Made by a program: the position numbers and the translations under genes. Below are positions 8,375-20,945 of a stretch of DNA of 24,000 nucleotides, piece after piece. How positions within the stretch are numbered: position 1 is the first letter of the stretch; each line of letters opens with the position of its first letter. Below the pieces are notes generated by a model. That model did not search any database. It saw only the letters and a list, made by a program, of their open reading frames with translations, and had not been told where the DNA came from. Source of the DNA: Opitutales bacterium (GTDB lineage Bacteria; Verrucomicrobiota; Verrucomicrobiia; Opitutales; UBA953); contig JAGBIL010000022.1 in assembly GCA_017935025.1 (NCBI GenBank), forward strand, positions 5,273-29,272, read 5' to 3'.

Positions 8375-9286
8375 ATGAAAATTGCGGTTGTCGGAGCCGG
8401 CGCGGTTGGCGCCTATCACGGAGTTTGCCTCGCACGCGCGGGACACGAAGTTCATTTTCTTCTGCGTAGCGATTACGAAATTGTGCGGGAACGCGGTTTT
8501 GAAATCCGCGATCGCGGAAATACGTTTACCGTTTCCGTGCACGCGCACAAAACGCCCGAAGAAATCGGCGTTTGCGACCTCGTTTTAATCGCGCTGAAAA
8601 CAACGGCGAACGCGCAGTTTCCGAAACTCCTCCCGCCGCTTTTCGGCGCGGGAACGACGGTTTTGACGCTGCAAAACGGACTCGGCAACGTCGAAGCACT
8701 CGGCGGACTTTTCGGCGCGGAAAACATCGTCGGCGGGCTTTGCTACGTTACGATTAACCGCCTTGCGCCCGGCGTTATCGCCAATCTCGGTGCGACGCGC
8801 CTGTGGCTGGGCGAGGGCGACGGCGGTGCGCCGAGGGAACGCACGCACGCGCTTGTGAAAATGTTCTGCGAAGCCGGACTTCCCGCCGAAGCGAAAACTT
8901 CGCTCGAAGAAACGCTTTGGAAAAAACTCTGCTGGAACATTCCGTTCAACGGGCTCGCGATTGCGGGCGGAAACATCGCGTGCGACGCGCTTTTGGCTTC
9001 GCCGGAACTCGTCGAACTCTCGTGGATTCTCATGCGCGAAATTCAGGCGGCGGCGCGTTCCCGCGGATGCGAAATTTCCGACGACCATTTGCAGAAACAA
9101 TTCGACGTTACCGCGCGCTGCGGCGCGTATTTGCCGTCGAGCCTGCTCGATTTCCGCGCCGGACGGGAAGTCGAAATCGAATCGATTTGGGGCGAACCGC
9201 TCCGTCGCGGCACCGCCAACGGCGTTCCCATGCCGCATCTCGAAACGCTTTATCTTTTGCTCAAAACGCTGTGCGCGAAGAATTAG
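8375..9286 (+). CDS. panE: 2-dehydropantoate 2-reductase (ketopantoate reductase)
   Basis: 303 aa. MKIAVVGAGAVGAYHG Rossmann N-terminus, LIALKT, and the C-terminal PSSLLDFRAGREVEIESIWGEPLRRG block. Confidence 0.85.
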   Translation: MKIAVVGAGAVGAYHGVCLARAGHEVHFLLRSDYEIVRERGFEIRDRGNTFTVSVHAHKTPEEIGVCDLVLIALKTTANAQFPKLLPPLFGAGTTVLTLQNGLGNVEALGGLFGAENIVGGLCYVTINRLAPGVIANLGATRLWLGEGDGGAPRERTHALVKMFCEAGLPAEAKTSLEETLWKKLCWNIPFNGLAIAGGNIACDALLASPELVELSWILMREIQAAARSRGCEISDDHLQKQFDVTARCGAYLPSSLLDFRAGREVEIESIWGEPLRRGTANGVPMPHLETLYLLLKTLCAKN

Positions 9287-9361
9287 GAAAAAATCCGTTT
9301 GTTCCGTTTTTTTTTTACAATAAACTTTTAACATTACACGCGCCGTAGGCGCTAAGAAAAA

Positions 9362-10249
9362 ATGCCCGCTCTTTCGACAAAAAACGGTTTTTGGACTTCG
9401 CCTCACGGGCGCGCGCTCCCGTGTGATTTCGCGAAACGCACCTTGCTGATGGGCATCGTGAATGCGACGCCGGATTCGTTTTCCGACGGCGGAAATTTCC
9501 TCGCTCCCGAAGCCGCGCGGGAACAGGCGTGCGCGCTGGTTGCGGCGGGCGCGGACGTTATTGACCTCGGCGCCGAGTCCACGCGTCCGGGCTCCGCTCG
9601 CGTGGGTGCGGACGAAGAATTGCGTCGGCTCATTCCCGCTTTGCGCGCTATTCGGGAAGCGCTTCCGCAAATTCCCGTTTCCGTTGACACTTCGCGTCCG
9701 GAAGTTGCCGAAGCCGCAATTCTTGCCGGCGCGGATATTATCAACGACGTTCTCGCTATCGGCGCGTTTGTCGCCGTTCCCGCCGATCCGGAAAGATATG
9801 AAATGGGGCAACTCGCCGCGCGCTTGGGCGCTCCGGTTATCGCGATGCACAACCGTCCGGCGGCAAACTACACGGATTTTTGGCAGGAATTTTTGAATGA
9901 TTTAACCGCCGGAATTGACCGCATTTTAAAAAGCGGCGTTCCCGCGAATCAGCTTTGGATTGATCCCGGTTTCGGCTTCGGAAAAACGCCGGAGCAAAAT
10001 CTGCAAATCGTGGCGCGCCTGCGGGAAATCGCCGCGCTCGGTTTCCCGGTTTTGCTCGGAACGAGCCGGAAAAGCACTCTGGGAATCGTTCTCGGCGGAA
10101 AACCTCCGCTGGAACGCACGGGCGGCGATTCCGCCTGCTGCGTGCTCGGCGCCTTTCACGGCGCGGCGTGCCTGCGCCTGCACGACATCGCCGCACACCG
10201 CGACACCGTAACCACCGCCGACGCCATCTCCCGCACGCTCTTTCCTTGA
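9362..10249 (+). CDS. folP: Dihydropteroate synthase
   Basis: 295 aa. MGIVNATPDSFSDGG and GADVIDLGAESTRPG signature blocks; DPGFGFGKT. Confidence 0.9.
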   Translation: MPALSTKNGFWTSPHGRALPCDFAKRTLLMGIVNATPDSFSDGGNFLAPEAAREQACALVAAGADVIDLGAESTRPGSARVGADEELRRLIPALRAIREALPQIPVSVDTSRPEVAEAAILAGADIINDVLAIGAFVAVPADPERYEMGQLAARLGAPVIAMHNRPAANYTDFWQEFLNDLTAGIDRILKSGVPANQLWIDPGFGFGKTPEQNLQIVARLREIAALGFPVLLGTSRKSTLGIVLGGKPPLERTGGDSACCVLGAFHGAACLRLHDIAAHRDTVTTADAISRTLFP

Positions 10250-10312: not shown

Positions 10313-10872
10313 ATGCCTGAAGAACTCGTCCCGCATTGGGGAAATTACAAAAAGTTGCTCAGTTTTCAAAAAGCAGAGTGCATTTACGATCTGACATACT
10401 ACTTTTGCCGCAATTTTCTCAGAAAAAACGACCGCACCGTCGATCAGATGATTCAGGCGGCGCGTTCCGGAAAACAAATATTGTTGAGGGTAGTGCGGCG
10501 GCATCGACTTCCCGCGAAATGGAAATCAAGCTTCTAAACGTCGCAAAAGCCAGCCTCCACGAATTGCTCGCCGATTACGAAGATTTTTTGCGTTCCCGCA
10601 GTCATCGGCAGTGGGAAGAAAACTCCGTGGAACTTCTCAAGATGCGGGAACTCGGACGCGCCCGAAACGACTCTGCATTTTTTATGCGCCTTGCGTCCAC
10701 CCGTCCGCCGGAAACCATCGCCAATATGGCTATCGTTCTCATTAAACAGGCGGATTATCTGCTTTTTCGCCAGATTCAACGCGCAAGCGCAGAATTTCTC
10801 AAACACGGCGGTATGCGGGAACGCATGACCCGACTTCGTCTCCAAGCCCGCTCCCGCCAATCTCGTCCTTAA
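10313..10872 (+). pseudogene. Four-helix-bundle protein (23S rRNA intervening-sequence protein family), disrupted by a 1-nt frameshift
   Basis: ORF 10313..10537 ends ...DQMIQAARSGKQ and continues in the frame of ORF 10336..10872 as NIVEGSAAASTSREMEIKLLNVAKASLHELLADYEDFL. The family motif SGKQNI(A/V)EGS is restored by adding one A to the AAA run at 10476-10478. Confidence 0.7.
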
Positions 10873-10965
10873 TTGCACTTTCTCTTTAAACACGTCCTTC
10901 TCTTTAAACTCCTTATTTTTTACCCGAAAAGCACCGTCATTTATGCGGAGCCGGATGACAAAAAG

Positions 10966-10998
10966 CCCACCGAATTTCTCATTCGGTGGGCATCTTTT
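10966..10998. terminator. Intrinsic terminator hairpin (possibly bidirectional)
   Basis: cccaccgaat-ttctc-attcggtggg is a perfect 10-bp stem. It is followed by catcttttg on the plus strand and by ctttttgtc on the minus strand. Confidence 0.6.
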
Positions 10999-11206
10999 GT
11001 TGGACGATAGTCTAAGCGAGATTGAGGCTATTTTTCGAGCAAAATTTTCTCGCGGAGGCGCAGAGCGCTACGGGAACATCTTGAATCTTGCTTCCAATCA
11101 AGGATTCATTGTCGTTGTTTCGGTGTCTGGGAGGAAGTTTATCACTTGATTCTCCGTGGTTTTGCGTCTCAGTGAGCGCGTCAAAGACCACCGAATGAGA
11201 AATTCG
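10971..11206. repeat. 19-nt perfect inverted repeat pair bounding a ~200-bp segment at the left border of the island
   Basis: cgaatttctcattcggtgg (10971-10989) has its exact reverse complement ccaccgaatgagaaattcg at 11188-11206. The flanks are also partly similar. Confidence 0.6.
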
Positions 11207-11252
11207 CTGAGCACGAATCTATGAGAAAAACCCCTAACAAAAGAACAAATTT

Positions 11253-13430
11253 GTGACTTATTTTGAACAGGCTCTTCATTTCTTCGAAGCGGGAAAGCTC
11301 GAAGAAGCACGTAAATATTTCGGCTACGCAAAGAATTTCGGTAGCGAAAACGAAAAGCAACGTGCGACTGAAATTCTCGAACAAATTAACGCGGGAACGG
11401 CAAATGTTGACTCGCTCATTCATGAGAATGCGTTGGCACGGCCGGCAAAAACCTTACTCGAAGAAAAACTCTACGCGCTCGCGTTGGAAAAACTGCTTGC
11501 GCTTGGGGATTCCGCAAGTGCCGAGGAGCTTTATTACCTCGGCGTTTTGCACGATGACTTCGGCATGGGAATGCCGAACGATCCGGGAAAAGCGCGTGCG
11601 TATTTCAAAAAATCATTCGACCTCGGCTATGCCGATGCCGGCGTCGGATATGTTTATGTAGGGACAGACGAAGATGAAGCCCCTGAACCGCTTAGCACAG
11701 AACAAAGGAAACTGTTAGAAAAAGCGGCAAAACGAGGAAGCATCCGGGCAAAAGCTTGGTTGCTAATAGACGATCTCGTCGTGTGCCTGAAAGAAAATGC
11801 GTCAGAAGAAGAAATTGAGACGGCAAAACAACGTTACGAACAATTTTTAGAAAAAACGGAATCTGATGATCCTTTCATATTGCTTCTTTCGGGAAAAGCG
11901 AGTTTAAGAAACGGTGTGCCCACTGTACGGGCTCGCGGATTTGAAATATTGCTTAATCTGCGAAATTATTGGGAAACCGACATTGCGGACATTGCATGGG
12001 TATGGATTGGTGAATGTTTCCGCGACGGAATTTATGTGTCACAAGATTTGGATGAGGCAAAATTTTGTTTTAATAAAATCGTAGAAATCGGAAAAAAAGA
12101 AGTTTCCGAAGAAGTGCGGGAATTCCTTTCCGGAAATTGGAGAGACGAGCCTTTGGAAGACGAGGATGCCGGGGAATGGGCGGTTGGGAAGATGAACGAA
12201 AAACTCCGCCAAATCGAAGAAGCTCTCTTTTTCGCCCGCCAAATGTGGCTGTATGATTTAGGGGAATCCAATAAGGACGAATGCAATGTAGAAGAATTTA
12301 GCCACATTCTTTCGGAGTGGACTGGTATGGTAGGGGCGTTGGAAACCGTCAAAAATCTTATCGGCGATTTGGGAAACATATTTAAAACGCACTTTGGAAT
12401 TTCTGACGCGGCGGAAATCTTGAATCAAAAAATCAGAAAAGAATTTACCGCGCTCAAAAAAGTTATCGAAGAAATGAATTGGGACTTAGCCAAATACAAA
12501 TTGCAGGCGGATAGCGACGGGATGATTGAAAATCTTAGAGGTCTGCTGTCGGCTTCAAAAATCGCCAAGAAACATACGACACGTTTTCTTGAGGCGAAAG
12601 AAGCTTTCATCGAAACGTTAAAGGAAACGTTAAAGAATACCGTTGTCGTCCTTATTTCCGAAGAGGACGAAAAAAGGACATCTAATACTAATGATTTCGA
12701 TTCTCTCTTTTCTTCACTCAAAAGCCCCTGGGGTCGATCAATCGCTTTTAAGATTAAGGATCTTCTTTTTACGGCTCATGCTTCTTGGAAAATGAGGATG
12801 ACCAACAAAAAAGTCGGAAACACCTCATTCGAAATTCCGGATTCATGGAAAGAAGATGCGTCACTCGCATTCAAAAAAATGATCGAAGATTGGGATGTTG
12901 ATTGCTTTAGGAAAGAAATTAAAGAACTTCTTAATGGCGTCGATTGCCTTTCGGTCGTAGGAAAGGATTTAAAAAAACTCTATCACGTCCTTAAAGAAAT
13001 GCAACACACCCTCCATGAGCGACAAACAGGCGGGGCTGATGAACCTGTCGTTTTGGAAAATTACTCAGAAATAGAAGCACGTTTTTTCGCATTCCAAAAC
13101 GACTTTTTAGAGGTCGTATGGGAAGCACTCCGTGAGGACGATGAATATTACAGAGACGAGAATGATGACGATCTCGAAGAATGCGACGATGAAGAAAATA
13201 ACGAGGAATCGTACGAAGACGACGAGGAAGATGAGGAATACGACGAAGATTCCGATGACGGAGAAGACGACGATGAGTACGAGGAAGAGGGTGATGACGA
13301 CGGGGAGGATGAGGACGAGGATGAAGAAGACGACGCTTACGTTTTTTGCATTTCCTGCGGAGCGAGAAATCCGGAAGGTGCAAATTTCTGCTACAAGTGC
13401 GGCGAGGAGATCTTTAGGGACGAAGATTAA
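11253..13430 (+). CDS. Large Sel1/TPR-repeat protein with central helical region, 67-aa poly-acidic tract and C-terminal CX2CX10CX2C zinc ribbon
   Basis: 725-aa ORF with a GTG start at 11253; TAA at 11235 closes the frame upstream. The N-terminus aligns to the start of the 16470 gene. Sel1-like units include LYYLGVLHDDFGMGMPNDPGKARAYFKKSFDLGYADA and WIGECFRDGIYVSQDLDEAKFCFNKIVEIG. The C-terminus is FCISCGARNPEGANFCYKCG. Confidence 0.8.
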   Translation: MTYFEQALHFFEAGKLEEARKYFGYAKNFGSENEKQRATEILEQINAGTANVDSLIHENALARPAKTLLEEKLYALALEKLLALGDSASAEELYYLGVLHDDFGMGMPNDPGKARAYFKKSFDLGYADAGVGYVYVGTDEDEAPEPLSTEQRKLLEKAAKRGSIRAKAWLLIDDLVVCLKENASEEEIETAKQRYEQFLEKTESDDPFILLLSGKASLRNGVPTVRARGFEILLNLRNYWETDIADIAWVWIGECFRDGIYVSQDLDEAKFCFNKIVEIGKKEVSEEVREFLSGNWRDEPLEDEDAGEWAVGKMNEKLRQIEEALFFARQMWLYDLGESNKDECNVEEFSHILSEWTGMVGALETVKNLIGDLGNIFKTHFGISDAAEILNQKIRKEFTALKKVIEEMNWDLAKYKLQADSDGMIENLRGLLSASKIAKKHTTRFLEAKEAFIETLKETLKNTVVVLISEEDEKRTSNTNDFDSLFSSLKSPWGRSIAFKIKDLLFTAHASWKMRMTNKKVGNTSFEIPDSWKEDASLAFKKMIEDWDVDCFRKEIKELLNGVDCLSVVGKDLKKLYHVLKEMQHTLHERQTGGADEPVVLENYSEIEARFFAFQNDFLEVVWEALREDDEYYRDENDDDLEECDDEENNEESYEDDEEDEEYDEDSDDGEDDDEYEEEGDDDGEDEDEDEEDDAYVFCISCGARNPEGANFCYKCGEEIFRDED
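13134..13334 (+). other. Poly-acidic low-complexity tract within the 725-aa protein
   Basis: By hand count, 51 of 67 residues are D or E (EDDEYYRDENDDDLEECDDEENNEESYEDDEEDEEYDEDSDDGEDDDEYEEEGDDDGEDEDEDEEDD). It sits directly before the zinc ribbon. Confidence 0.9.
13347..13400 (+). other. Zinc-ribbon module copy 1 (CX2CX10CX2C)
   Basis: C-IS-C-GARNPEGANF-C-YK-C at the C-terminus of the 725-aa protein. Confidence 0.75.
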
Positions 13431-13463
13431 CCCGAATATTTCAAAAACCAAAACCCTATAACA

Positions 13464-14225
13464 ATGACTAACACTTGGAAAAATCTTGTTCCCGTGGAAA
13501 TCGGGAAGTGGACGGGAACGGGCGACGTGATAACGCTCAACCTTGCTCGCGTGAAATCGCTTTTAATCGGCGGCGAATCCGGAAGCGGGAAATCTTGCCT
13601 GATTCGGCATATTCTCGCGACGCTCACGCGGGAACACACGCCGGAAGAAGTTTGCTTTCTCATCGCAGATCCGAAAATTGTCGAATATTCGGATTACGAA
13701 GATAGTCCGTATTTGCTACGTCCGGTCGTCACGGACGCAGAGTACATGGCGGAAACATTCGATTGGCTTTTTGCGGAATACGAGCGCCGCTTTAACCTTC
13801 TCGGAAAATACGGTTGTCGCAACATCGCTACGTTTAACGAAGCGGTTTGTGCGGGAACGATTTCCGAAGAAAAGCTTCCGAACATTGTTTTCGTTATTGA
13901 TGAATTTGCGGATTTCTTAATTCAAGATTTCGAAGGCTTTGAAGCTTCGATTGCGCGTCTTGCCGCACTCAGCCGTGCGTACGGAATTTTTCTCGTTCTT
14001 GCGACGCAGCACGCGGATCCGAAATGCGTTACAAACCTGATAAAAGCCAATTTGAACGCGCGCATCGCGTTTCGCACGGGAACGGCGAAAGCTTCAAAAG
14101 TCATCCTCGAACAATCCGGCGCGGAATCCCTGCGGGAACGCGAATTTCTCTATTCGCCCGACGCTACGGCTTCCGAAAACCCGACCGCCATAAAACTCCG
14201 CGCCTCCGAGTGTCCGGAGGAATAA
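13464..14225 (+). CDS. Stand-alone FtsK/SpoIIIE-family ATPase (motor domain only, 253 aa)
   Basis: Walker A GGESGSGKS (13572-13595) and Walker B IVFVIDEFADF. FtsK-like blocks IADPKIVEYSDYEDSPYLLRPVVTD, FAEYERRFNLLGKYGCRNIATFNE, YGIFLVLATQHAD and LIKANLNARIAFRTGT. No TM region and no gamma/KOPS-binding domain. Confidence 0.85.
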   Translation: MTNTWKNLVPVEIGKWTGTGDVITLNLARVKSLLIGGESGSGKSCLIRHILATLTREHTPEEVCFLIADPKIVEYSDYEDSPYLLRPVVTDAEYMAETFDWLFAEYERRFNLLGKYGCRNIATFNEAVCAGTISEEKLPNIVFVIDEFADFLIQDFEGFEASIARLAALSRAYGIFLVLATQHADPKCVTNLIKANLNARIAFRTGTAKASKVILEQSGAESLREREFLYSPDATASENPTAIKLRASECPEE

Positions 14226-14259
14226 AACACTTTCAACTTCTCTAATCCCGAACTCAAAA

Positions 14260-14952
14260 ATGTTCATTCCGATTAACACAGCTCCAAGTTTGGCAACGAT
14301 GGCAATTCTCGCCGCAATCACCATTGTTGAGGACGCTATTCCAAAATCGCGGGAAGACGCAAAGCGTAAGCTCGGGGCTGTTGTAAAAATCGTCGCAACC
14401 CTTGCCAAAGAAACCCTCAAGCGTAAGGTCGGAAAACCTTTGCTCGAAGATGCGGAACTCACGCTTGCGTGCTTGCAGGAGCGAGTTGAGGGAAATTTTC
14501 TCAAGGTTCAAACCGTTTCGGCGGGAACGGTCGTTATTTGCTCGCTCGCAAAAGGAATAACGCATCACTCCGGAATTTGGCTCGAAAACGGGACAATTTC
14601 CGAACTCGACGGCGACGGAAATTATCGTGCGGTCAATTTAGAAACGTTTCTTCGCGGGAACGAAGGCGAACGCTGGAGAGCTGGAACATTTGCCTATGCC
14701 GCGTGTAGTTTGCAGGGACAACCGCTGGGCTCGAATGATGTCGCCGAAATAGCCCAAAGCTTTCTCGGCAAAAAAACAAAATACAGCGTGGATGCCAACA
14801 ACTGCCACCGTTTTTCAACGGCATGCCACAGTGGCGGGGAGGCAGAAAACGTTTTCCGACCCAATGAAACTTTTTCAGTCGGAAAACTTCTCAACCGCAT
14901 TCTCTGCTTCCACAATAAAGAAAAAATCCGCTGGATACCGATTGTTGCATAA
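14260..14952 (+). CDS. Membrane-anchored LRAT-like (permuted NlpC/P60 papain-fold) protein
   Basis: 230 aa with a hydrophobic N-terminus (SLATMAILAAITIV). The His-then-Cys order is as in LRAT/H-rev107 enzymes: HHSGIW (His codons 14563-14568) and NNCHRF (Cys codon 14803-14805), compare NCEHF. Assignment is by motif only. Confidence 0.6.
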   Translation: MFIPINTAPSLATMAILAAITIVEDAIPKSREDAKRKLGAVVKIVATLAKETLKRKVGKPLLEDAELTLACLQERVEGNFLKVQTVSAGTVVICSLAKGITHHSGIWLENGTISELDGDGNYRAVNLETFLRGNEGERWRAGTFAYAACSLQGQPLGSNDVAEIAQSFLGKKTKYSVDANNCHRFSTACHSGGEAENVFRPNETFSVGKLLNRILCFHNKEKIRWIPIVA

Positions 14953-15005
14953 ACGAAACCGACGAAAACACAGGTAAAAATTGAAATCAATCAACAATCA
15001 ATGCC

Positions 15006-15890
15006 ATGACTCGCGATTTTATTCACCCTGCGGACAAAGAAGCTCTAAAAACGTTAAAAGATATTCCGGGCTTAGACCTTTTAATAAAAAAAGTCCTCGG
15101 GCTCTTTTCCGAAAACCAATATCGCGCTTTGTGCCTCGCAACAAAGGTGCGTCTATCTCCATCGCAACTTCCGGAGCTTTACAATAAATTACCTCCGATT
15201 TGTAAGCGCTTAGGAATATCCGTTCCCGAATTTTATTTGGAGGCAGATGTAAATCCGAATGCTTCTGCATTTGGTGATACGAATCCGATTATTTGCGTAA
15301 CTTCCGGTCTCATCTCCTCTATGACCGAAGAGGAAATTGAGTACGTTATTGCTCACGAATGCGGACACATCGCCTGCCACCATATGCTGTATCACACGCT
15401 CTCGAGAATTTTAATTCTCTGCGCCGATTCTTTGGATATTTTGGGAATGGCAATTAAACCGTTAATTTGGGCGTTACTAAAATGGCAACGTTGTAGCGAG
15501 CTCTCCGCAGATCGGGCTGCCGCATTTGCGCTCCGTAGCGTGGAATGGGTCGTTAACACTCAAATTCGTCTGTCCGGCGGACCTGCGGTATTAACCCAAC
15601 ATGTAAACATCGACGAATTTGTAAAACAGGCAGACGAGTTTGAAAACTACGGATCTAACATACTTAAGAGCTTGCTGAAAAACATTCTGGCTCTCGGAGA
15701 AACTCATCCGTTTGCCGCCGTACGCGTTAGGGAGATTTTGAAATGGAGCCACTCTTGGGAATATCGAAAACATATCAAAAACACCGAAGTCATTGACTGT
15801 TTAACAAATCAAAGCATTTGCCCTTGTTGCGGCAACGAAATCGAACCGGAATGGGCATTTTGTAAAAAGTGCGGAAACAAAATCCGGTAG
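15006..15890 (+). CDS. M48-family zinc metallopeptidase with C-terminal zinc ribbon
   Basis: 294 aa with HExxH in IAHECGHIACHH (15354-15368), a downstream glutamate-containing region, and the C-terminal CPCCGNEIEPEWAFCKKCG. Confidence 0.85.
   Translation: MTRDFIHPADKEALKTLKDIPGLDLLIKKVLGLFSENQYRALCLATKVRLSPSQLPELYNKLPPICKRLGISVPEFYLEADVNPNASAFGDTNPIICVTSGLISSMTEEEIEYVIAHECGHIACHHMLYHTLSRILILCADSLDILGMAIKPLIWALLKWQRCSELSADRAAAFALRSVEWVVNTQIRLSGGPAVLTQHVNIDEFVKQADEFENYGSNILKSLLKNILALGETHPFAAVRVREILKWSHSWEYRKHIKNTEVIDCLTNQSICPCCGNEIEPEWAFCKKCGNKIR
15819..15872 (+). other. Zinc-ribbon module copy 2 (CX2CX10CX2C)
   Basis: C-PC-C-GNEIEPEWAF-C-KK-C at the C-terminus of the M48 peptidase. Confidence 0.75.
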
Positions 15891-15937
15891 TTTTTTACTT
15901 CATCAATAAATCTCTAACCACAATCAAAATAAAAATT

Positions 15938-16447
15938 ATGGGAACATTCACATCCGATAAAGTATTCACTTGCCCAAAATCTTGTATTCCGGAAATCGAA
16001 TCGGCAATTATCGCCGCATTTGAACCGGAAGGTTTTGAAATTAAGCGATTTTCGCTTCCAAACGGCGGATTCGAATTATCAATGACCAAAGGCGGAATGT
16101 TTAAAGCCGTTGTCGGAATGAAATCTGCATTGAAAGTAACGGCAAATCCGACCCCGACCGGTGTTCAAATCGAAGCGGGAATAGGGATTTTCGGGCAACA
16201 GGCATTGCCGACGGTCGTTACAATGTTTGTATTTTGGCCGGTCATGATTCCTCAAATTTGGGGAATGATTCAGCAGTCAAAACTTGATGACAAGGTTTTG
16301 GAAATTGCGGAATCAACAGTCCAAAATTATGTCGAACCGATTGCGATTACGCAGCAAACTGATGCGGGAACGCAATTTTGCACACAATGCGGAGGCAAAA
16401 ATCCTTCCGATGCTAAATTCTGCAACAAGTGCGGAGCTAAACTTTAA
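15938..16447 (+). CDS. Small protein with one hydrophobic segment and C-terminal zinc ribbon
   Basis: ATG 15938 (MGTFTSDK...); the ORF-track start at 15869 would overlap the upstream gene. Hydrophobic segment ALPTVVTMFVFWPVMIPQIWGMI. C-terminal FCTQCGGKNPSDAKFCNKCG. Confidence 0.6.
   Translation: MGTFTSDKVFTCPKSCIPEIESAIIAAFEPEGFEIKRFSLPNGGFELSMTKGGMFKAVVGMKSALKVTANPTPTGVQIEAGIGIFGQQALPTVVTMFVFWPVMIPQIWGMIQQSKLDDKVLEIAESTVQNYVEPIAITQQTDAGTQFCTQCGGKNPSDAKFCNKCGAKL
16379..16432 (+). other. Zinc-ribbon module copy 3 (CX2CX10CX2C)
   Basis: C-TQ-C-GGKNPSDAKF-C-NK-C. Confidence 0.75.
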
Positions 16448-16469
16448 AACTCAATAGAGATTATTTCAT

Positions 16470-16841
16470 ATGGCAAAGACATACTTTGAAACGGCAATAG
16501 ATGCCCTTCGTCAGAATGATTTTACGACAGCTTGTAGATTTTTGGGGTATGCAATCGAATACGGTAGCAATAAAGAAAAGAGGAAAGCTAGGAAAATTTT
16601 AGAAGAAACCCCGCAACTTGAAAGATACAAAGAGATTCCTCGTAAAACCAACGACACAATTGTTGATGAAATTATTACAAAAGCTACTCGTCTAGCAAAT
16701 AAAGCCGCAACCGGAGAACTAAAAAAAGAAATATCTAAAAAAGGGAAATACCTTGCTGAAGAATTTATCGACGAAGTTAAGTCAAATCCTATTGGTTGTA
16801 TAAAAATCGCATGTCGAATGTGGAAGATTTTTGGAGGTTAG
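16470..16841 (+). CDS. Small helical protein sharing the N-terminal TPR-like module of the 725-aa protein
   Basis: 123 aa. TYFETAIDALRQNDFTTACRFLGYAIEYGSNKEKRKARKILEE aligns to TYFEQALHFFEAGKLEEARKYFGYAKNFGSENEKQRATEILEQ at 17 of 43 identities by hand. Confidence 0.55.
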   Translation: MAKTYFETAIDALRQNDFTTACRFLGYAIEYGSNKEKRKARKILEETPQLERYKEIPRKTNDTIVDEIITKATRLANKAATGELKKEISKKGKYLAEEFIDEVKSNPIGCIKIACRMWKIFGG

Positions 16842-16845
16842 AAAT

Positions 16846-17637
16846 ATGGCTAAAGAAAAAGATCCGTGGCTCGACACCCTAGAAAAAAAGACTGATAAGT
16901 TGAATGCACCCATTTTGCTTGAGTTCGAAGAGTGGAATAATTCCGAGAAAGAGGCTGATGAATTAATACAAGCTGCCAATAACTTCAGTCCTGAAAGAGT
17001 CGTTAGCAAAATAGAAAAACTCTGCGAAGAAATTGCGCAGTGGTATGTTTCAGAGCACAATAAGTTAATAAAAAAAGTATGCAAAGAAACAGAAATCAAG
17101 CCAACCCCATGGCTTTCTCATGATTCTAAAGATTGGCTCTACGGTGAAGTTGTTTCAGAACTAAAAGCTCTTGAAAATGCTCTCAATCACGTAAGAAATT
17201 CAATGTGCGATATCGCCTCATTTGTGGAGAGAAATACAGGATTCTGGGCGAACGCGAAAGTATTTATTGATAGCGCAATTAAAGGAGCTATTTCTCCTTT
17301 GCGTAGTATGTACGACTACGGGAAGGATTTCTTAAGTGGATTTGAAAATCCGGAAGCCAAACGGGTTGATTCAAATTATGAGAGGTCTCTTGAAGAACTT
17401 TCCAATGCACAAGAACGTTTGTCTCAAGTAGTATATACAAAATGTATTTCTCGGTGGAACGATAAAACATTGGGAGCAATTAAAGATATTGAGAACTCCC
17501 TGCTACCCAGTAAAGTCCAACCCGCGCCATCGATTCTCAAACGCTGTTTTTGGGGAATTATTAAACTCTTACTGCTTGCTGGGCTTATCCTCGGAGGGAT
17601 GACACTTCTTGAAAAATACAAAATTATTAACTTTTAA
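16846..17637 (+). CDS. Tail-anchored helical protein
   Basis: ATG 16846 is preceded by ggagg at an 8-nt spacing and lies 4 nt after the upstream stop. The protein is predicted mostly helical, with a C-terminal TM segment CFWGIIKLLLLAGLILGGMTLL. Confidence 0.55.
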   Translation: MAKEKDPWLDTLEKKTDKLNAPILLEFEEWNNSEKEADELIQAANNFSPERVVSKIEKLCEEIAQWYVSEHNKLIKKVCKETEIKPTPWLSHDSKDWLYGEVVSELKALENALNHVRNSMCDIASFVERNTGFWANAKVFIDSAIKGAISPLRSMYDYGKDFLSGFENPEAKRVDSNYERSLEELSNAQERLSQVVYTKCISRWNDKTLGAIKDIENSLLPSKVQPAPSILKRCFWGIIKLLLLAGLILGGMTLLEKYKIINF

Positions 17638-17659
17638 AATAACGACTTACCCTAATATC

Positions 17660-19735
17660 ATGAATGGAATATTAACCGAACGGGAGAAAAATATTGTCTC
17701 TGCCACCAAAGAAGAGCTCGAAAAATGCAGGTCTATTCTTGAATCAACCCCCGAGGCAAGAAAGACGCTTGTTCCCGCTTATGAAAATGTTTTGCGGGAA
17801 CTCCGCGGATTTGATTCCGAGCTCTTCATTGTTTCTTCAATGGGAATGCTAAAATCAGGGAAATCGTCTCTGGTTAATTTGTTGGCACGTTCGGAACTTG
17901 CGTCTCCTACCGGATACGGAACGGATACAACACTTCGCCCTGCACTCATCATGCCAGCGACAGCACAAAAGCCTGAAGGGGAAATTGAGGTTTGGTTTGC
18001 AAGTAACCCAACAGAACTTTCGCTTTCCGGCGATATGTCGAAAGAAGACATCGAAGCAAAACGTAAAGAAATGCTGTCTTCTGTCTTTGATTTTGTTCGA
18101 GGCGTAGGACGTGAGCCGGAGAACGCAGTCAGAAAATCGCACAGACTAACGGAAGAAAAGCTCAAAAATATTTTATGTAAAAAACAAAGCTTAGGAAATG
18201 AGCTACCTTCCGAACCGATATTGGTTATTGTGCGTGTGCCTCGGAAAGACGGCTCCTTACTTTCTGATAAAATCGTTTTGTTGGATACACCGGGTTTAGA
18301 CTCCATGAATTCCGAGTGGACTACAAATTCCGCTTGGTATCTTTGGCTAATGGAAAAAAGCGATTTGCTTCTATTTTTACAGAGTAGCGTCGCACCATTA
18401 AATCTCTCAGCCGGAGAAATTTTGAAAGAACTCCAACGCCAAAAACGCGGACGCCCGATTTGGTTGATACAAAACCTTATGGAGGCAAAGCACTGGATGA
18501 AAAAAGATGTTCAGGAGGCAGAAAATCTATCTCAAAAGGAAAGAGCGGTTACCGAGTTTCAAAAAATTAGCACCAACACGAATAGTTATTCGGTAAATCT
18601 CGGCAAGGACTTTCCGAAGTTGTTCGAGCAAGAAAGCGATCTTGACTGCAGTGCTGATTCAGAACATCTGTTAAATGAATCCGGATTCAAAGAGCTTGAA
18701 GAAGGCATTAAAGATTCTCTCAAAAGAAATGCGACCGCTCAACGTAAAGGGAATTGTATCAGAAACGTAGAAAATGCAAAAAATGAATTTGGGAAAATGA
18801 TCAAGAGTTTTAGGGAAAATGAAGTCGGAAAAATTCGCAACGAATGTGATCAAAAGCGGAAAGTAATTGAGAACGCATTCAAGGTATTGGCGGAAAAAAT
18901 TGATCCGAACCTAACACCTGCAGGGTTGCGCGTACAACGCGTAACGGACGATCAAATTTCTTTCAAGGGGGAATCTGAATCTGAGTTTTGGGGAGGATCG
19001 TTTGACGCTTCGCTAAACAGCAAGTTTAAAAGCAACGAGAACTACAACTTAGTCTATCTTAATAATTTTAAGGATGAAAAAATTCGCGAGGCGCATGATA
19101 GGTTTCGACAATTTTTGGAAGAAACCGAATCCGATGACGTAAATTGGGAGTCGGAAGAAGGCGCAAAAATGAATCTTCGGCGCAAAGTTATAGGTCAATT
19201 CTCAAAATTTATAAAAGAAGTAATGGCAGAGACGCAGGACGCGAAGAACGTTCTGAAATGCGAAGATATTCAACACAAAGAATGTCCACAAAAAATGAAT
19301 ATCACAGAAATTCACAGTCTTTCGAAGATTGAATTTCCGGATTATGATAGCTCAGGCTTATCCGACAAAGGCTTCATCAAAAGACTTAGTAAAAAATGTT
19401 CATCTCTTTTCTGCGGAGGAAAAATTTATATCGGTGAACGTTGTCGCTCCAAAATAACAGATTACAAATACAACGAAAAGTCATTGAAAGCCACCCTTAA
19501 GTTCTTTCACGAAACGGAGCAAAAAAAAATTAAGAGTAAAATCGCAAACTGGGCAAACGAACAATTTAATGAATCGTGCCGTGATTTTTTAAAAAAACTT
19601 GAGGCGCGGAGAGAGGAATGTTTAGAGGAAATCAGGAGAAAACGGGAGAACGCAGATTCTTTGGAATCAAATCTTTTTTGTATTGAAAGTATCCTCGAAA
19701 ATGCCATGAAAAGATTTGACGGGATTAACAATTAA
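17660..19735 (+). CDS. Bacterial dynamin-like GTPase (BDLP family)
   Basis: ATG 17660 (MNGILTEREK...). G1 P-loop GMLKSGKSSLVNLL (17843-17866), G2-like GTDTT, G3 LLDTPGLDS. The following SDLLLFLQSS...IWLIQNLMEAK layout resembles BDLPs. A long helical C-terminal half follows. Confidence 0.8.
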   Translation: MNGILTEREKNIVSATKEELEKCRSILESTPEARKTLVPAYENVLRELRGFDSELFIVSSMGMLKSGKSSLVNLLARSELASPTGYGTDTTLRPALIMPATAQKPEGEIEVWFASNPTELSLSGDMSKEDIEAKRKEMLSSVFDFVRGVGREPENAVRKSHRLTEEKLKNILCKKQSLGNELPSEPILVIVRVPRKDGSLLSDKIVLLDTPGLDSMNSEWTTNSAWYLWLMEKSDLLLFLQSSVAPLNLSAGEILKELQRQKRGRPIWLIQNLMEAKHWMKKDVQEAENLSQKERAVTEFQKISTNTNSYSVNLGKDFPKLFEQESDLDCSADSEHLLNESGFKELEEGIKDSLKRNATAQRKGNCIRNVENAKNEFGKMIKSFRENEVGKIRNECDQKRKVIENAFKVLAEKIDPNLTPAGLRVQRVTDDQISFKGESESEFWGGSFDASLNSKFKSNENYNLVYLNNFKDEKIREAHDRFRQFLEETESDDVNWESEEGAKMNLRRKVIGQFSKFIKEVMAETQDAKNVLKCEDIQHKECPQKMNITEIHSLSKIEFPDYDSSGLSDKGFIKRLSKKCSSLFCGGKIYIGERCRSKITDYKYNEKSLKATLKFFHETEQKKIKSKIANWANEQFNESCRDFLKKLEARREECLEEIRRKRENADSLESNLFCIESILENAMKRFDGINN

Positions 19736-19746
19736 ACCTGTTAGTT

Positions 19747-20760
19747 ATGAAAAAACTTTTCAAGTCTCCGTGGGCTTGGTGTGTCGTTTCGGGAATCGTA
19801 CTTTTTGCTGTTTCCGGATTGCTGATGCGCGGGAACGCTTTAAACGAATGCTTTCCCGGTGGAATCGTCGGGTGGATTTTCTGGGGAATTCTTATACTAC
19901 TCGCGTTGCACTTCCTAATTCGTCCGTTTGTGGGATTTGTCGGGCTTCCTCAATGGAAATCCGAGGAAGAACAAGCGGGAATGAATGACTTTGATCGGTT
20001 ACTGTTTTTAGAAAAATATGCTAAAAGCATCTCTAAAACGCAGGCCGTCTCTTCGTTTGAAAATGCTAGTTTACTGGAAAAATTGAGGAACCTTGAAAAT
20101 GCCCTGCATGAAATGCACTCGAGTTCCCGATTAGAGCTCTTGGAGAAAAGCGTTCCCGAATTTCGGGAAGCATTACATAAAGAGGTTTGTAGTCCTATTA
20201 TTTCTGCCCACATGAAATATGCCGCAGTCGCCGTTGTTGTTTCTCAACGCGGGATTCTTGATGCTTTTGTCGTATTTGCATTGCAGGTAAAACTAATTAT
20301 CGCTCTTAGTCGAGCAATGGGACATCGCCCGTCGTGGGCGTTTGTTTCCTGTTGCATGGTCTGGGTAATAAGCAATTCACTCATTTCGTTAATCTTTGAC
20401 GAAACAAATATCACCGAAACAGCACTTTCTTCTTTAAGCGAAATTTTGAGAATCCAATCCGGCGGGCTGTTAGGTGAAATCCCCGGATTAAAAACAATCG
20501 CAAATCTTTCAATGCAAGCACTTACTGCTGCTAGTTCCGTTTACATTACGGGGGAACTCGTTCGATCCCGCTTACTCGGAAACGCAAAAAAGAAAACCAT
20601 AAAAGAGTTACTAAAAATACGTGTCGACGGCTACAACGAAGCCGGAAAAATCGCAACCAACATAATCGGCGGTTTTTTCGGAGCAAAATCTACTGAAAAT
20701 GATGATTCTGATAAAAGTGCTACAACGACTCCCATGAAATCTCCTGTTCTCCCACAATAA
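19747..20760 (+). CDS. DUF697/YcjF-like membrane protein
   Basis: 337 aa. Two N-terminal TM helices, a helical linker, then AAVAVVVSQRGILDAFVVFALQVKLIIALSRAMGHRP. By eye this resembles the YcjF core ([30 protein letters not shown]). Starts 11 nt after the dynamin-like gene. Confidence 0.5.
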   Translation: MKKLFKSPWAWCVVSGIVLFAVSGLLMRGNALNECFPGGIVGWIFWGILILLALHFLIRPFVGFVGLPQWKSEEEQAGMNDFDRLLFLEKYAKSISKTQAVSSFENASLLEKLRNLENALHEMHSSSRLELLEKSVPEFREALHKEVCSPIISAHMKYAAVAVVVSQRGILDAFVVFALQVKLIIALSRAMGHRPSWAFVSCCMVWVISNSLISLIFDETNITETALSSLSEILRIQSGGLLGEIPGLKTIANLSMQALTAASSVYITGELVRSRLLGNAKKKTIKELLKIRVDGYNEAGKIATNIIGGFFGAKSTENDDSDKSATTTPMKSPVLPQ

Positions 20761-20765
20761 ACTCC

Positions 20766-20945
20766 ATGCTTTTCGCATCTGTAATTGATTTAGTTTGTCG
20801 TGTGATTTTGGTTTTCGGGAAAGGAATAAAAGCCTTTACCGAAGGGGAATTCGGGGCATTTTTTATGGAGTGGATTGCTTTGCCGTTGATTGTTCTCTTC
20901 GTTTCAATCGTCGTTTATTGTTTCTGTCGCAATAGAAAATGGTAG
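20766..20945 (+). CDS. 59-aa putative small membrane protein (below the 60-aa ORF-track cutoff)
   Basis: ATG 20766 lies 5 nt after the upstream stop. Translation MLFASVIDLVCRVILVFGKGIKAFTEGEFGAFFMEWIALPLIVLFVSIVVYCFCRNRKW has two hydrophobic segments. TAG at 20943-20945. Confidence 0.4.
   Translation: MLFASVIDLVCRVILVFGKGIKAFTEGEFGAFFMEWIALPLIVLFVSIVVYCFCRNRKW

Follow-up and report, generated by a model that had tools for sequence, protein, structure and literature searches.

A compositionally foreign, operon-like cluster of ten genes built on a conserved dynamin and DUF697-type gene pair in an uncultured gut Opitutales bacterium

The window analysed here, 24,000 nt of the genome of an uncultured gut Opitutales bacterium (Verrucomicrobiota; contig JAGBIL010000022.1 of assembly GCA_017935025.1), contains ten open reading frames (ORFs) on the + strand, which occupy positions 11253-20945 and are numbered G1 to G10 in order along it. 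The gaps between them measure 33, 34, 53, 47, 22, 4, 22, 11 and 5 nt, and the lengths of their products are identical in the calls made by an independent pipeline on two metagenome contigs with the same locus. The GC content of the island is 0.430, as against 0.553 in the upstream and 0.558 in the downstream flank, and GC at third codon positions is 0.27-0.54, as against 0.65-0.68 in the flanking folP, panE and pyrF; because both values lie well below those of the flanks, the island is regarded as compositionally foreign. A terminator scan found no convincing internal terminator, and predicted sigma-70 promoter sites are no more numerous in the island than in shuffled sequence. G1-G10 form a single operon-like, compositionally foreign cluster, much as a first-pass annotation had described it from the letters alone (ten same-strand ORFs with these gaps, AT-rich, probably one operon, lying between folP with a pseudogene on one side and pyrF on the other). 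The nine genes that are common to the window and a sister species have ratios of non-synonymous to synonymous substitution (dN/dS) of 0.10-0.44, and this purifying selection indicates that they are maintained genes and not chance ORFs. The conserved unit, however, is not the ten genes but a two-gene core, G8 and G9, which encode a dynamin-like GTPase and a polytopic membrane protein with a divergent DUF697 domain.

G8 (17660-19735, + strand, 691 amino acids (aa)) matches Pfam Dynamin_N with 39.2 bits against a cut-off of 27 (1e-9), and a protein of 100% identity to it is listed by NCBI from a metagenome-assembled Opitutales genome. Its P-loop (GMLKSGKS, aa 62) and the DTPG of GTPase motif G3 (aa 209; motif numbers are those of GTPases and not of the genes) are both invariant across 89 homologues, while the G4 region is atypical, with an invariant N272 in a conserved ...IQN.M.AK.W and not N/TKxD. 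Sequence comparison with solved dynamins gave nothing significant (the best match, to a mitofusin, was at 0.36). An AlphaFold2 model built on the 89 homologues has a predicted local distance difference test (pLDDT) score of 90, its helices 7-52 and 343-690 corresponding to neck and trunk, and in a Foldseek search it matched with a probability of 1.00 the Nostoc bacterial dynamin-like protein (BDLP; 2j69, 2.6e-13), IniA (1.3e-12), SynDLP (4.8e-12) and mitofusins (~1e-10), with Campylobacter DLP1/2 and LeoA also among the top matches. The corresponding TM-scores are low (0.27-0.35), which is expected because hinge states differ. No hydrophobic paddle was found, in that no 19-residue window of the protein reaches a Kyte-Doolittle value of 1.6; the tip (aa 533-608) is instead modelled as a low-confidence, basic, Cys-containing loop. 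As modelled, G8 is thus a dynamin of the BDLP/mitofusin class with its GTPase motifs intact.

The distal trunk and tip of G8 (18971-19507, + strand; aa 438-616, a block that includes a low-confidence loop at aa 572-585) stand out as hypervariable when alleles are compared. Between the window and the sister species, pyrF and G4-G7 are 96-98% identical and G8 is 77% identical, with a dN of 0.150 for G8 and 0.019 for pyrF, and within G8 identity drops from 90-100% in the GTPase domain to 25-67% over residues 438-616. Three close alleles share 32-75% identity in the distal trunk and tip, falling to 32-44% in all three pairs over residues 554-616. The same was seen in an independent lineage represented by two very close strains (L003:8344-10404 and L074:10001-12046), whose dynamins are 97.5-100% identical in the GTPase domain, with dS ~0, and 55-87% in the C-terminal half. 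This pattern suggests either an arms race or the shuffling of alleles. In sliding windows, dN/dS of the tip exceeds 1 in two boundary windows only, and elsewhere dS is saturated or the alignment unreliable. Because of this saturation and of the uncertain alignment in the variable block, positive selection on the tip is not claimed, and mosaic recombination is the safer description of its variation.

G9 (19747-20760, + strand, 337 aa) is predicted to begin with two transmembrane (TM) helices, followed by a helical region in the cytoplasm and by a divergent form of the DUF697 domain, which is recognized below the Pfam cut-off (17.6 bits against 27.7) and by TIGR01620 at 1e-3; 15 of 16 close homologues match DUF697 too, the best of them at 1.4e-5. 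The distribution of the pair was followed in 62 genome loci and in metagenome contigs that had been reached via homologues of individual proteins and were each searched with all ten proteins; collapsing them at a dynamin identity of at least 90% left 51 locus groups, three of which end too soon on their contig, so that 48 were evaluable. A G9 homologue lies directly 3' of the dynamin gene in 36 of these 48. The junction, an 11-nt gap in the window, ranges across the groups from a 20-nt overlap to a 40-nt gap according to our own crude gene calls, and three loci (L003, L074 and L075) have a 4-nt overlap in the calls of an external pipeline. Carriers of the pair are metagenome-assembled genomes (MAGs) labelled Opitutales, Akkermansia, Verrucomicrobiales, Victivallaceae/Lentisphaerae, Kiritimatiellae, Bacteroidales and Treponema, which derive for the most part from the gut of ruminants, horses, rabbits and humans; to these is added the cultured Treponema saccharophilum, where RefSeq labels the two products 'dynamin family protein' and 'DUF697 domain-containing protein'. 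G9 is the better conserved of the two between lineages (61-65% identity, against 41-58% for G8). No description of a dynamin together with DUF697 was found in the literature searched, and the pairing, like the cassette architecture described below, appears to be undescribed although it is made of known types of parts and probably serves a familiar kind of function. As a side observation, the same flanks in five Akkermansia loci (L024, L025, L044, L045 and L063) enclose G8 alone, G8 followed by G9, or two tandem G8 paralogues followed by G9, varying between species.

The genes upstream of the pair, by contrast with the pair itself, are interchangeable, lineage-specific cassettes. The full ten-gene set was found in this species only. 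Its sister species, whose dynamin is the one 77% identical to G8, carries this operon in the identical place, 5' of pyrF-dus, except for G3 (which is missing from L009, L071 and L072), and the search of the collected loci with all ten proteins found G4, G6 and G10 only in these two species. A ten-gene conflict system, as first proposed for this locus, therefore stands only in part: the full set belongs to one species and its sister lacks G3, yet several components do co-occur elsewhere in rearranged form, the recurrent linkages to dynamins being G2 with G3, G3 with dynamins, a G1-like protein with the pair, and G5 and G7 with the pair.

These rearrangements take several shapes. Three loci (L080-L082) carry G5 (82% identical) and G7 (53%) together with G8 and G9 but without G1-G4. 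A G1-like Sel1/zinc-ribbon protein, 35% identical to G1 and including a G7-like segment, lies directly 5' of the pair in L003; no G7-like segment was detected within G1 of the window. At the same chromosomal site of a very close strain, L074 has instead a 63%-identical homologue of G3 together with a C39-like peptidase, a protein of 514 aa and two dynamins that resemble LeoA/LeoBC. L078/L079 show in order a mini-FtsK (80% identical to G2), G3 (72%), and then the C39-like peptidase and extra dynamin also seen in L074. The pair is preceded in L028 (from Akkermansia) and L067 (from Kiritimatiellae) by a C39-like peptidase, then two dynamins and then Hsp70, present as one or two paralogues; the LeoA/LeoBC-like dynamins of L028 and L074 match at ~1e-20. 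Other upstream sets consist of two PrsW-GYF_2 proteases (L033) or of VWA proteins, a Ser/Thr kinase and a phosphoesterase (L008 and L015), while in L077 the mini-FtsK is found beside HipA, Fic and HTH genes with no dynamin in the 9 kb downstream.

Two of these loci deserve further description. Compared over L003:6425-11381 and L074:2581-13038, the two close strains have entirely different upstream gene sets at a site between a polysaccharide-synthesis gene and ftsZ/ftsA, and despite this the first 35 residues of their first genes are 74% identical, which looks like an exchange of cassettes by recombination behind a conserved 5' end. The larger conserved cluster of L028 (1387-12960) and L067 (3-13050) opens with a protein of ~210 aa, and its two extra dynamins are LeoBC-like and LeoA-like. 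L028 alone has two proteins of ~270 aa without an assigned family between Hsp70 and the G8-type dynamin, which is followed by G9; in L067 the gene after the G8-type dynamin is G9-like by iterative search only. A combined dynamin and Hsp70 cluster was not found described in the literature searched.

In the window itself the upstream set begins with G1-G4. G1 (11253-13430, + strand, 725 aa) encodes a soluble scaffold with a TPR-like N-terminus (aa 2-44), Sel1/TPR repeats (Sel1 at 2e-6, below the Pfam cut-off), an extended helical stretch, a tail rich in acidic residues (aa 618-695, 68% Asp/Glu) and a zinc ribbon (aa 698-720; Zn_Ribbon_1 5.6e-6). G2 (13464-14225, + strand, 253 aa) is a mini-FtsK (Pfam FtsK_SpoIIIE 4e-33) with Walker A (GESGSGKS, aa 37-44) and Walker B (VFVIDE, aa 142-147) motifs. 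It aligns with residues 191-440 of Pseudomonas aeruginosa FtsK (2iuu; E = 4e-42), the alignment starting at the beta domain, and it consists of the RecA-like beta motor domain only, without membrane segment, alpha or gamma domain (there is no Ftsk_gamma match). The family, of about ten clusters with 67-90% identity, keeps this size throughout, every member being of 252-257 aa, and among NCBIfam models G2 matches true FtsK (1.8e-43) better than the secretion ATPases EccC/EssC (1e-17 to 1e-23). G3 (14260-14952, + strand, 230 aa) is a membrane-anchored candidate thiol acyltransferase or hydrolase of the LRAT/NlpC-P60 type, with an N-terminal hydrophobic segment (aa 5-23). Its match to Pfam LRAT, at 25.6 bits (E 1.6e-5), barely exceeds the cut-off of 24.3 and covers profile positions 80-117 only, but the motifs HHSGI (aa 102) and NCHRF (aa 181), which place His and Cys in permuted order, are kept in all four homologues; the PDB match to PLAAT2 is only at 0.81. 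Between the two sister species G3 amounts to a clean indel of ~785 nt (window 14224-15008 against L071:1933-1966). G4 (15006-15890, + strand, 294 aa) is an HtpX-like M48 zinc metalloprotease, which scores 64.6 bits (1.4e-17) with Peptidase_M48, where the cut-off is 20.3. Its HECGH motif lies at aa 117, and a zinc ribbon (aa 272-293; Zn_Ribbon_1 1.9e-5) forms its C-terminus. The best NCBIfam models for G4 are those of HtpX, down to 3e-13, and in the PDB it matches the HtpX homologue 3cqb at 1e-6. The domains that had been assigned by eye to this cluster (FtsK, LRAT-like, M48, dynamin and Sel1/TPR) are all correct by Pfam, with Sel1, like DUF697, remaining below the cut-off.

The remaining genes are G5-G7 and G10. 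G5 (15938-16447, + strand, 169 aa) has an N-terminal domain without an assigned family, a hydrophobic helix (aa 93-111) and a zinc ribbon (aa 147-169; Zn_Ribbon_1 5e-7). G6 (16470-16841, + strand, 123 aa) has an N-terminus of the TPR-like type, paralogous to that of G1, and ends in ...MWKIFGG. G7 (16846-17637, + strand, 263 aa), directly 5' of the dynamin gene, combines a helical domain of ~215 aa with a C-terminal TM tail anchor, and like G6 it has no match in Pfam, NCBIfam or PADLOC; its family (P0257-P0284) comprises 28 relatives with E-values of at most 0.001 among 1.84 billion cluster representatives. G10 (20766-20945, + strand, 59 aa) consists of two hydrophobic helices and has a dN/dS of 0.44 against L071. 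A Kyte-Doolittle scan detected hydrophobic segments in G3, G4 (where it is weak), G5, G7, G9 and G10, in agreement with the earlier estimate of at least five membrane-anchored proteins. Comparison of G5, G6, G7, G10, G1 and G3 with the other families that precede the pair (f28, f44, f136 and others) gave hhalign probabilities that are all at most 1.2%.

Several of these proteins share modules. Zn_Ribbon_1 is found at the C-termini of G1, G4 and G5, with 73% DNA identity over 59 nt between the ribbons of G1 and G5, and BLASTP aligns the N-termini of G1 and G6 over 43 aa with 40% identity (E = 2e-9), which bears out the three zinc ribbons and two TPR-like N-termini noticed at first sight. Since both modules cross the boundary between G1-G4 and G5-G10, they tie the two halves of the cluster together. 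Composition, for its part, sets G2 and G3 apart: their GC is 0.49-0.51 against 0.36-0.44 in G5-G10, which fits a separately acquired cassette and suggests that the G2/G3 cassette is of separate origin.

Side observations were made on G5, G6 and G7. G5 of L080 (8618-9127) is 82% identical to that of the window, whereas the dynamin of the same locus is 41%, G9 61% and G7 53% identical; so high an identity of G5 would mean unusually strong constraint or recent exchange. The relatives of G7 end either in a TM tail anchor or in an SH3-like domain (...VPGW.KV....G..GW...). The L080 homologue (9149-9949), 53% identical and likewise directly 5' of the dynamin, lacks the TM tail and ends in ...LYRIFGG, which resembles the ...MWKIFGG of G6 (window 16821-16841). 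An amphipathic helix with a terminal Gly-Gly is thus common to G6 and the L080 homologue of G7, which are otherwise different proteins, and it is conceivable that this C-terminus is a processing or conjugation signal.

Upstream of the island lie panE, then folP (Pterin_bind 3e-68), then a gene with a four-helix-bundle suffix domain, and downstream pyrF (NF001273 1e-76) and a dus gene. In the gene at the upstream edge (10336-10872), the suffix domain is well conserved (TIGR04258 1e-19) and the N-terminal half is degraded or replaced and no longer matches the family; most likely this is a pseudogene or a gene that has been truncated. A bidirectional terminator-like hairpin (10965-10991; 11-bp stem with seven G-C pairs and T runs on both strands) would end the transcription unit upstream of the island. 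An imperfect inverted copy of this hairpin (11188-11212; repeat I2, 92% over 25 nt), 198 nt further on and just 5' of G1, may be left over from a repeated element or from the insertion event. No tRNA gene was found in the window, no direct repeats flank the island and no Rfam family matches anywhere in the window at gathering thresholds. Pfam and NCBIfam scans detected no relaxase, VirB4 or integrase/recombinase among the ten proteins or in the flanks. A scan of metagenome contigs with the PyrF of the window, aimed at finding an empty site, gave relatives that were at most 64% identical and showed no synteny with folP, dus or the island.

A link to defence was sought at two levels. Within the island, PADLOC gave no system-level match, only matches of single domains: G2 resembles the C-terminus of SspH (4e-37) and mad8 (2e-22), with no other Ssp or MADS component present in the island, and G8 has a weak and partial match to LeoBC (1.2e-7, 29 bits, aa 204-529) and none to LeoA. 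These domain-level matches, together with the lack of relaxase, VirB4 and integrase, agree with the initial view that the cluster corresponds to no named system, and a literature search for dynamin-based candidate defence systems found no matching one. Around the loci, 150 neighbours were scanned (four genes on each side, one per family, in ~50 locus groups), with the limits that gene calls were our own and crude, that the best 25 families were listed and that there was no background control. Among the matches listed, PADLOC models recurred only for other dynamins and generic kinases, and no restriction-modification, Abi or CRISPR component was recurrent. Pfam families found in more than one neighbour, again among the matches listed, are generic GTPase domains, dynamins, GYF_2, kinases, Mrp/Nuo antiporter subunits, metallo-beta-lactamase-fold proteins, GNAT acetyltransferases and radical SAM enzymes, and the single-member families listed are of the housekeeping kind (for instance transketolase, tRNA synthetases, SRP54, SufBD and QueC). 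The context, with neighbourhoods that are mostly housekeeping, argues against a classical defence island.

Viral and plasmid origins were considered as well and set aside. A viral origin was rejected on finding no relative of G8 in 2.9 million viral contigs, and PHROGs gave no match to the dynamin core, its matches being to generic FtsK, metalloprotease and Sel1 parts. A plasmid origin was rejected too, the sole match being pTS2 of T. saccharophilum, a non-mobilizable replicon of 382 kb. The accessory-island defence context on which the first-pass annotation had relied is thus not borne out, the neighbours being mostly housekeeping; nor was the pair found on viral contigs.

Comparison with known systems shows where the locus fits and where it departs from them. 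G8 resembles the bacterial dynamin-like proteins (Nostoc BDLP, Bacillus subtilis DynA, IniA/IniC, Campylobacter DLP1/DLP2 and SynDLP) in its GTPase domain and helical neck and trunk, but differs in having no hydrophobic paddle, an atypical G4 region and no significant sequence match to any solved dynamin, and its type is usually a single gene accompanied by a DUF697-type membrane protein and not a tandem or fused dynamin pair. Eleos (LeoA and LeoBC) is likewise dynamin-based, and relatives of the window locus (L028 and L074) carry LeoA/LeoBC-like dynamins 5' of the pair. However, Eleos needs two consecutive dynamin genes, whereas the island has one, which matches LeoBC weakly, and components of the DUF697, FtsK, LRAT and M48 types are missing from Eleos. 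It is moreover enriched near defence genes, adjoining known defence systems in ~60% of cases (10.1101/2022.05.11.491447), which the relatives of the window locus are not in our crude neighbour scan. A parallel in gene order is YcjX-YcjF, in which the gene of a soluble NTPase is also followed directly, often with an overlap, by that of a DUF697-type polytopic membrane protein, an arrangement that implies a factor driven by nucleotide and anchored in the membrane in a setting of envelope stress (PMC3041696, PMC8125068). Nevertheless, the NTPase of that system belongs to DUF463, to which the dynamin G8 has no match, and G9 is a sub-threshold relative of DUF697 that is not significantly similar to E. 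coli YcjF.

The accessory enzymes are related to known families in the same partial way. G2 has, like FtsK/SpoIIIE, the SspH C-terminus and MADS mad8, a complete beta motor with Walker A and B, but lacks in its 253 aa the TM, alpha and gamma domains of full FtsK. G4 has the HExxH catalytic core of the HtpX-type M48 proteases, but scores 49 bits against an equivalog cut-off of 341, has at most one weak hydrophobic segment and carries a C-terminal zinc ribbon. Although Tn916-like integrative and conjugative elements pair FtsK with NlpC/P60, the window has no relaxase, VirB4-type ATPase or integrase, and neither tRNA gene nor direct repeats.

Taken together, these findings are best accommodated by a modular, dynamin-centred machine for membrane remodelling or surveillance, to which we give a probability of about 45%. 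In this explanation the ten genes would be one horizontally acquired operon. The structure of the operon, its foreign composition, the identity of the domains, the BDLP fold, the conservation of the pair and the turnover of the accessory genes are shown, whereas every functional step is inferred: how G9 recruits G8, how other components dock via the modules they share, what G2-G4 do biochemically and what sets the system off. The following sequence of events is proposed. G8, having no paddle of its own, would be held and regulated at the cytoplasmic membrane by G9, following the same logic as the YcjX NTPase with YcjF. Upon encountering a damaged or deformed membrane, it is predicted to assemble in a GTP-driven manner and to tether, seal or remodel the bilayer. 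G5 with its zinc ribbon, G6, the tail-anchored G7 and G10 may be small local adaptors extending the core in this lineage, the zinc ribbon of G1, G4 and G5 and the TPR-like module of G1 and G6 possibly docking these proteins to a common partner. The HtpX-like protease G4 would remove damaged membrane proteins, G3, as a putative LRAT-type thiol acyltransferase or phospholipase, would edit the phospholipids of the damaged membrane, and the G2 motor would act on DNA or polypeptide. The net role would be a protective surveillance and repair of the envelope, and it might extend to tolerance of phage lysis or of pore formers in the gut.

This explanation is favoured by the foreign composition of the operon, the intact GTPase motifs and BDLP fold of G8, the adjacency, stronger conservation and DUF697 matches of G9, the modules that cross the boundary between G1-G4 and G5-G10 and the purifying selection on the nine shared genes. 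Further evidence in its favour is that the accessory sets of other loci (PrsW, Hsp70 and C39-like proteins) consist of membrane or protein quality-control proteases and chaperones, the neighbourhoods are mostly housekeeping and not defence islands, and G5 and G7 accompany the pair even where the dynamin is only 41% identical. Protective membrane sealing has a precedent in mycobacterial IniA, as it has in DynA. In B. subtilis, DynA protects against phage at the population level by keeping membrane integrity (PMC8844932; 10.1101/2022.05.11.491447). The ycjX-ycjF genes are controlled by sigma-32 and frequently lie beside psp operons, and when phiX174 infects the cell their induction accompanies that of responses to membrane damage (PMC3041696, PMC8125068). 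A role in membrane remodelling or stress, which had initially been left as an equal alternative to a conflict system, is now at least as well supported as the latter. However, a number of findings seem difficult to reconcile with it. G9 is missing next to the dynamin in 12 of the 48 evaluable locus groups and is therefore not obligatory; none of its 16 close homologues matches DUF697 above the cut-off, the profile comparison of G9 with E. coli YcjF is not significant (hhalign probability 0.1), and its structure model, with a pLDDT of 68, has no PDB match. A stand-alone FtsK motor is not obviously needed for repair. Some loci adjoin RHS or HNH toxins with immunity genes, or restriction-modification genes, with RHS/YD toxins near L005 and L080, and restriction-modification and Abi_2 genes near L080-L082. 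Finally, the hypervariable mosaic tip, the turnover of upstream cassettes and the linkage to Eleos-like dynamins fit an arms race better than housekeeping repair.

These last points lead directly to the main rival explanation, namely a dedicated anti-phage or anti-invader immune system in which the variable tip of G8 and/or the repeats of G1 and G6 would sense an invader at the membrane, and in which G3 (as phospholipase or acyltransferase), G4 (as protease) and G2 (as DNA or protein pump) would be effectors that block the invader or kill the cell by abortive infection. The foreign composition of the island and its patchy distribution across phyla would be expected of such a system, as would the swapping of upstream cassettes at one site between close strains (L003 and L074) and a tip that is hypervariable and mosaic next to a near-identical GTPase domain. 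Some variants moreover include LeoA/LeoBC-like dynamin pairs (~1e-20), and the two-dynamin Eleos has been shown experimentally to be a defence system (10.1101/2022.05.11.491447); the mini-FtsK lies beside HipA, Fic and HTH genes in L077, and RHS, HNH with immunity, restriction-modification and Abi_2 genes occur near some loci. However, PADLOC matches are at the domain level only, the 150 neighbours show no recurrent restriction-modification, Abi or CRISPR genes among the matches listed, whereas Eleos lies beside known defence systems in ~60% of cases (10.1101/2022.05.11.491447), no relative was found on viral contigs, the dynamin core has no PHROG match, and the apparent excess divergence of the tip coincides with saturated dS and uncertain alignment. 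A dedicated immune role is considered a live possibility, though less likely than the membrane reading. A bolder extension, that G8 and G9 stand for a family of immune modules of gut bacteria that is based on a dynamin and has so far gone undescribed, is rather unlikely. The tip would here recognize a target, in analogy to loop L4 in the Mx proteins of animals, with G9 positioning the dynamin and the cassettes supplying effectors, among them the mini-FtsK with the LRAT-like lipid hydrolase, M48, PrsW or C39 proteases, Hsp70 and extra Eleos-like dynamins.

Less weight is given to the notion that the island is a composite of independent cassettes gathered in one hot spot, in which G5-G10 would be a dynamin module and G1-G4 one or more unrelated units. 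The higher GC of G2 and G3 (0.49-0.51, against 0.36-0.44 for G5-G10), the indel that removes G3 between sister species, the mini-FtsK of L077 with no dynamin in the 9 kb downstream, the presence of G5, G7, G8 and G9 without G1-G4 in L080-L082 and the confinement of G4 to two sister species would all be consistent with it. Yet the genes are separated by gaps of 22-53 nt with no convincing internal terminator or promoter, the zinc ribbon (G1, G4 and G5) and the TPR-like N-terminus (G1 and G6) link the two halves, G3 and the mini-FtsK are again found directly 5' of dynamins in two further architectures (L074 and L078/L079), and a G1-like protein directly precedes the pair in L003, all of which makes a chance assembly improbable. 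Type VII secretion is powered by FtsK-family ATPases, and a role in vesicle release has been proposed for LeoABC of enterotoxigenic E. coli. A device for vesiculation or export might therefore be imagined, in which the dynamin pinches off or fuses membrane and the FtsK-type ATPase and peptidases process or load cargo, and it would agree with the LeoA fold of G8, the matches of G2 to EccC/EssC models (1e-17 to 1e-23), the C39-like peptidases of sister architectures and the fact that all carriers are diderm gut bacteria. This is nonetheless very improbable, since the operon contains no secretion-system component, signal-peptide cargo or toxin gene, G2 is nearer to true FtsK (1.8e-43) than to secretion ATPases, and the neighbour analysis yields no sign of cargo.

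Bacterial dynamins are few and poorly understood, and have lately been tied to membrane repair and phage defence. The locus described here points to a distinct clade of dynamins, widely exchanged among gut bacteria of several phyla, which recruits differing enzymes in each lineage and which might have outsourced its membrane anchoring to a DUF697 protein, thereby providing a first testable hypothesis for the large DUF697/YcjF family. Should an arms race lie behind the hypervariable tip and the turnover of cassettes, the locus would represent a new kind of immune architecture that is based on a dynamin and parallels Mx proteins; if there is no such race, the machine for membrane remodelling or surveillance favoured above would be a modular device for envelope maintenance in Akkermansia and other abundant taxa of gut and rumen. 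Since T. saccharophilum is a culturable carrier, the core pair is open to experimental test.

Two further neighbourhoods of G8-type genes were noted. In T. saccharophilum (L083, pTS2 286444-294000), the pair (286444-289331) is followed directly by the gene of an HNH-motif protein and then by Imm19, SUKH-4 and SMI1/KNR4 genes, and the genes 3' of the pair are a polymorphic-toxin immunity island. In several Lentisphaerae/RUG MAGs (L006, L011, L012 and L014), a solo G8-type dynamin without G9 ends a conserved block with PDDEXK_1, DUF932 and DUF4942. A transposase, a ResIII helicase and an integrase lie close by in L006, which resembles an integrative element, and one genome carries two copies ~20 kb apart on the same contig.

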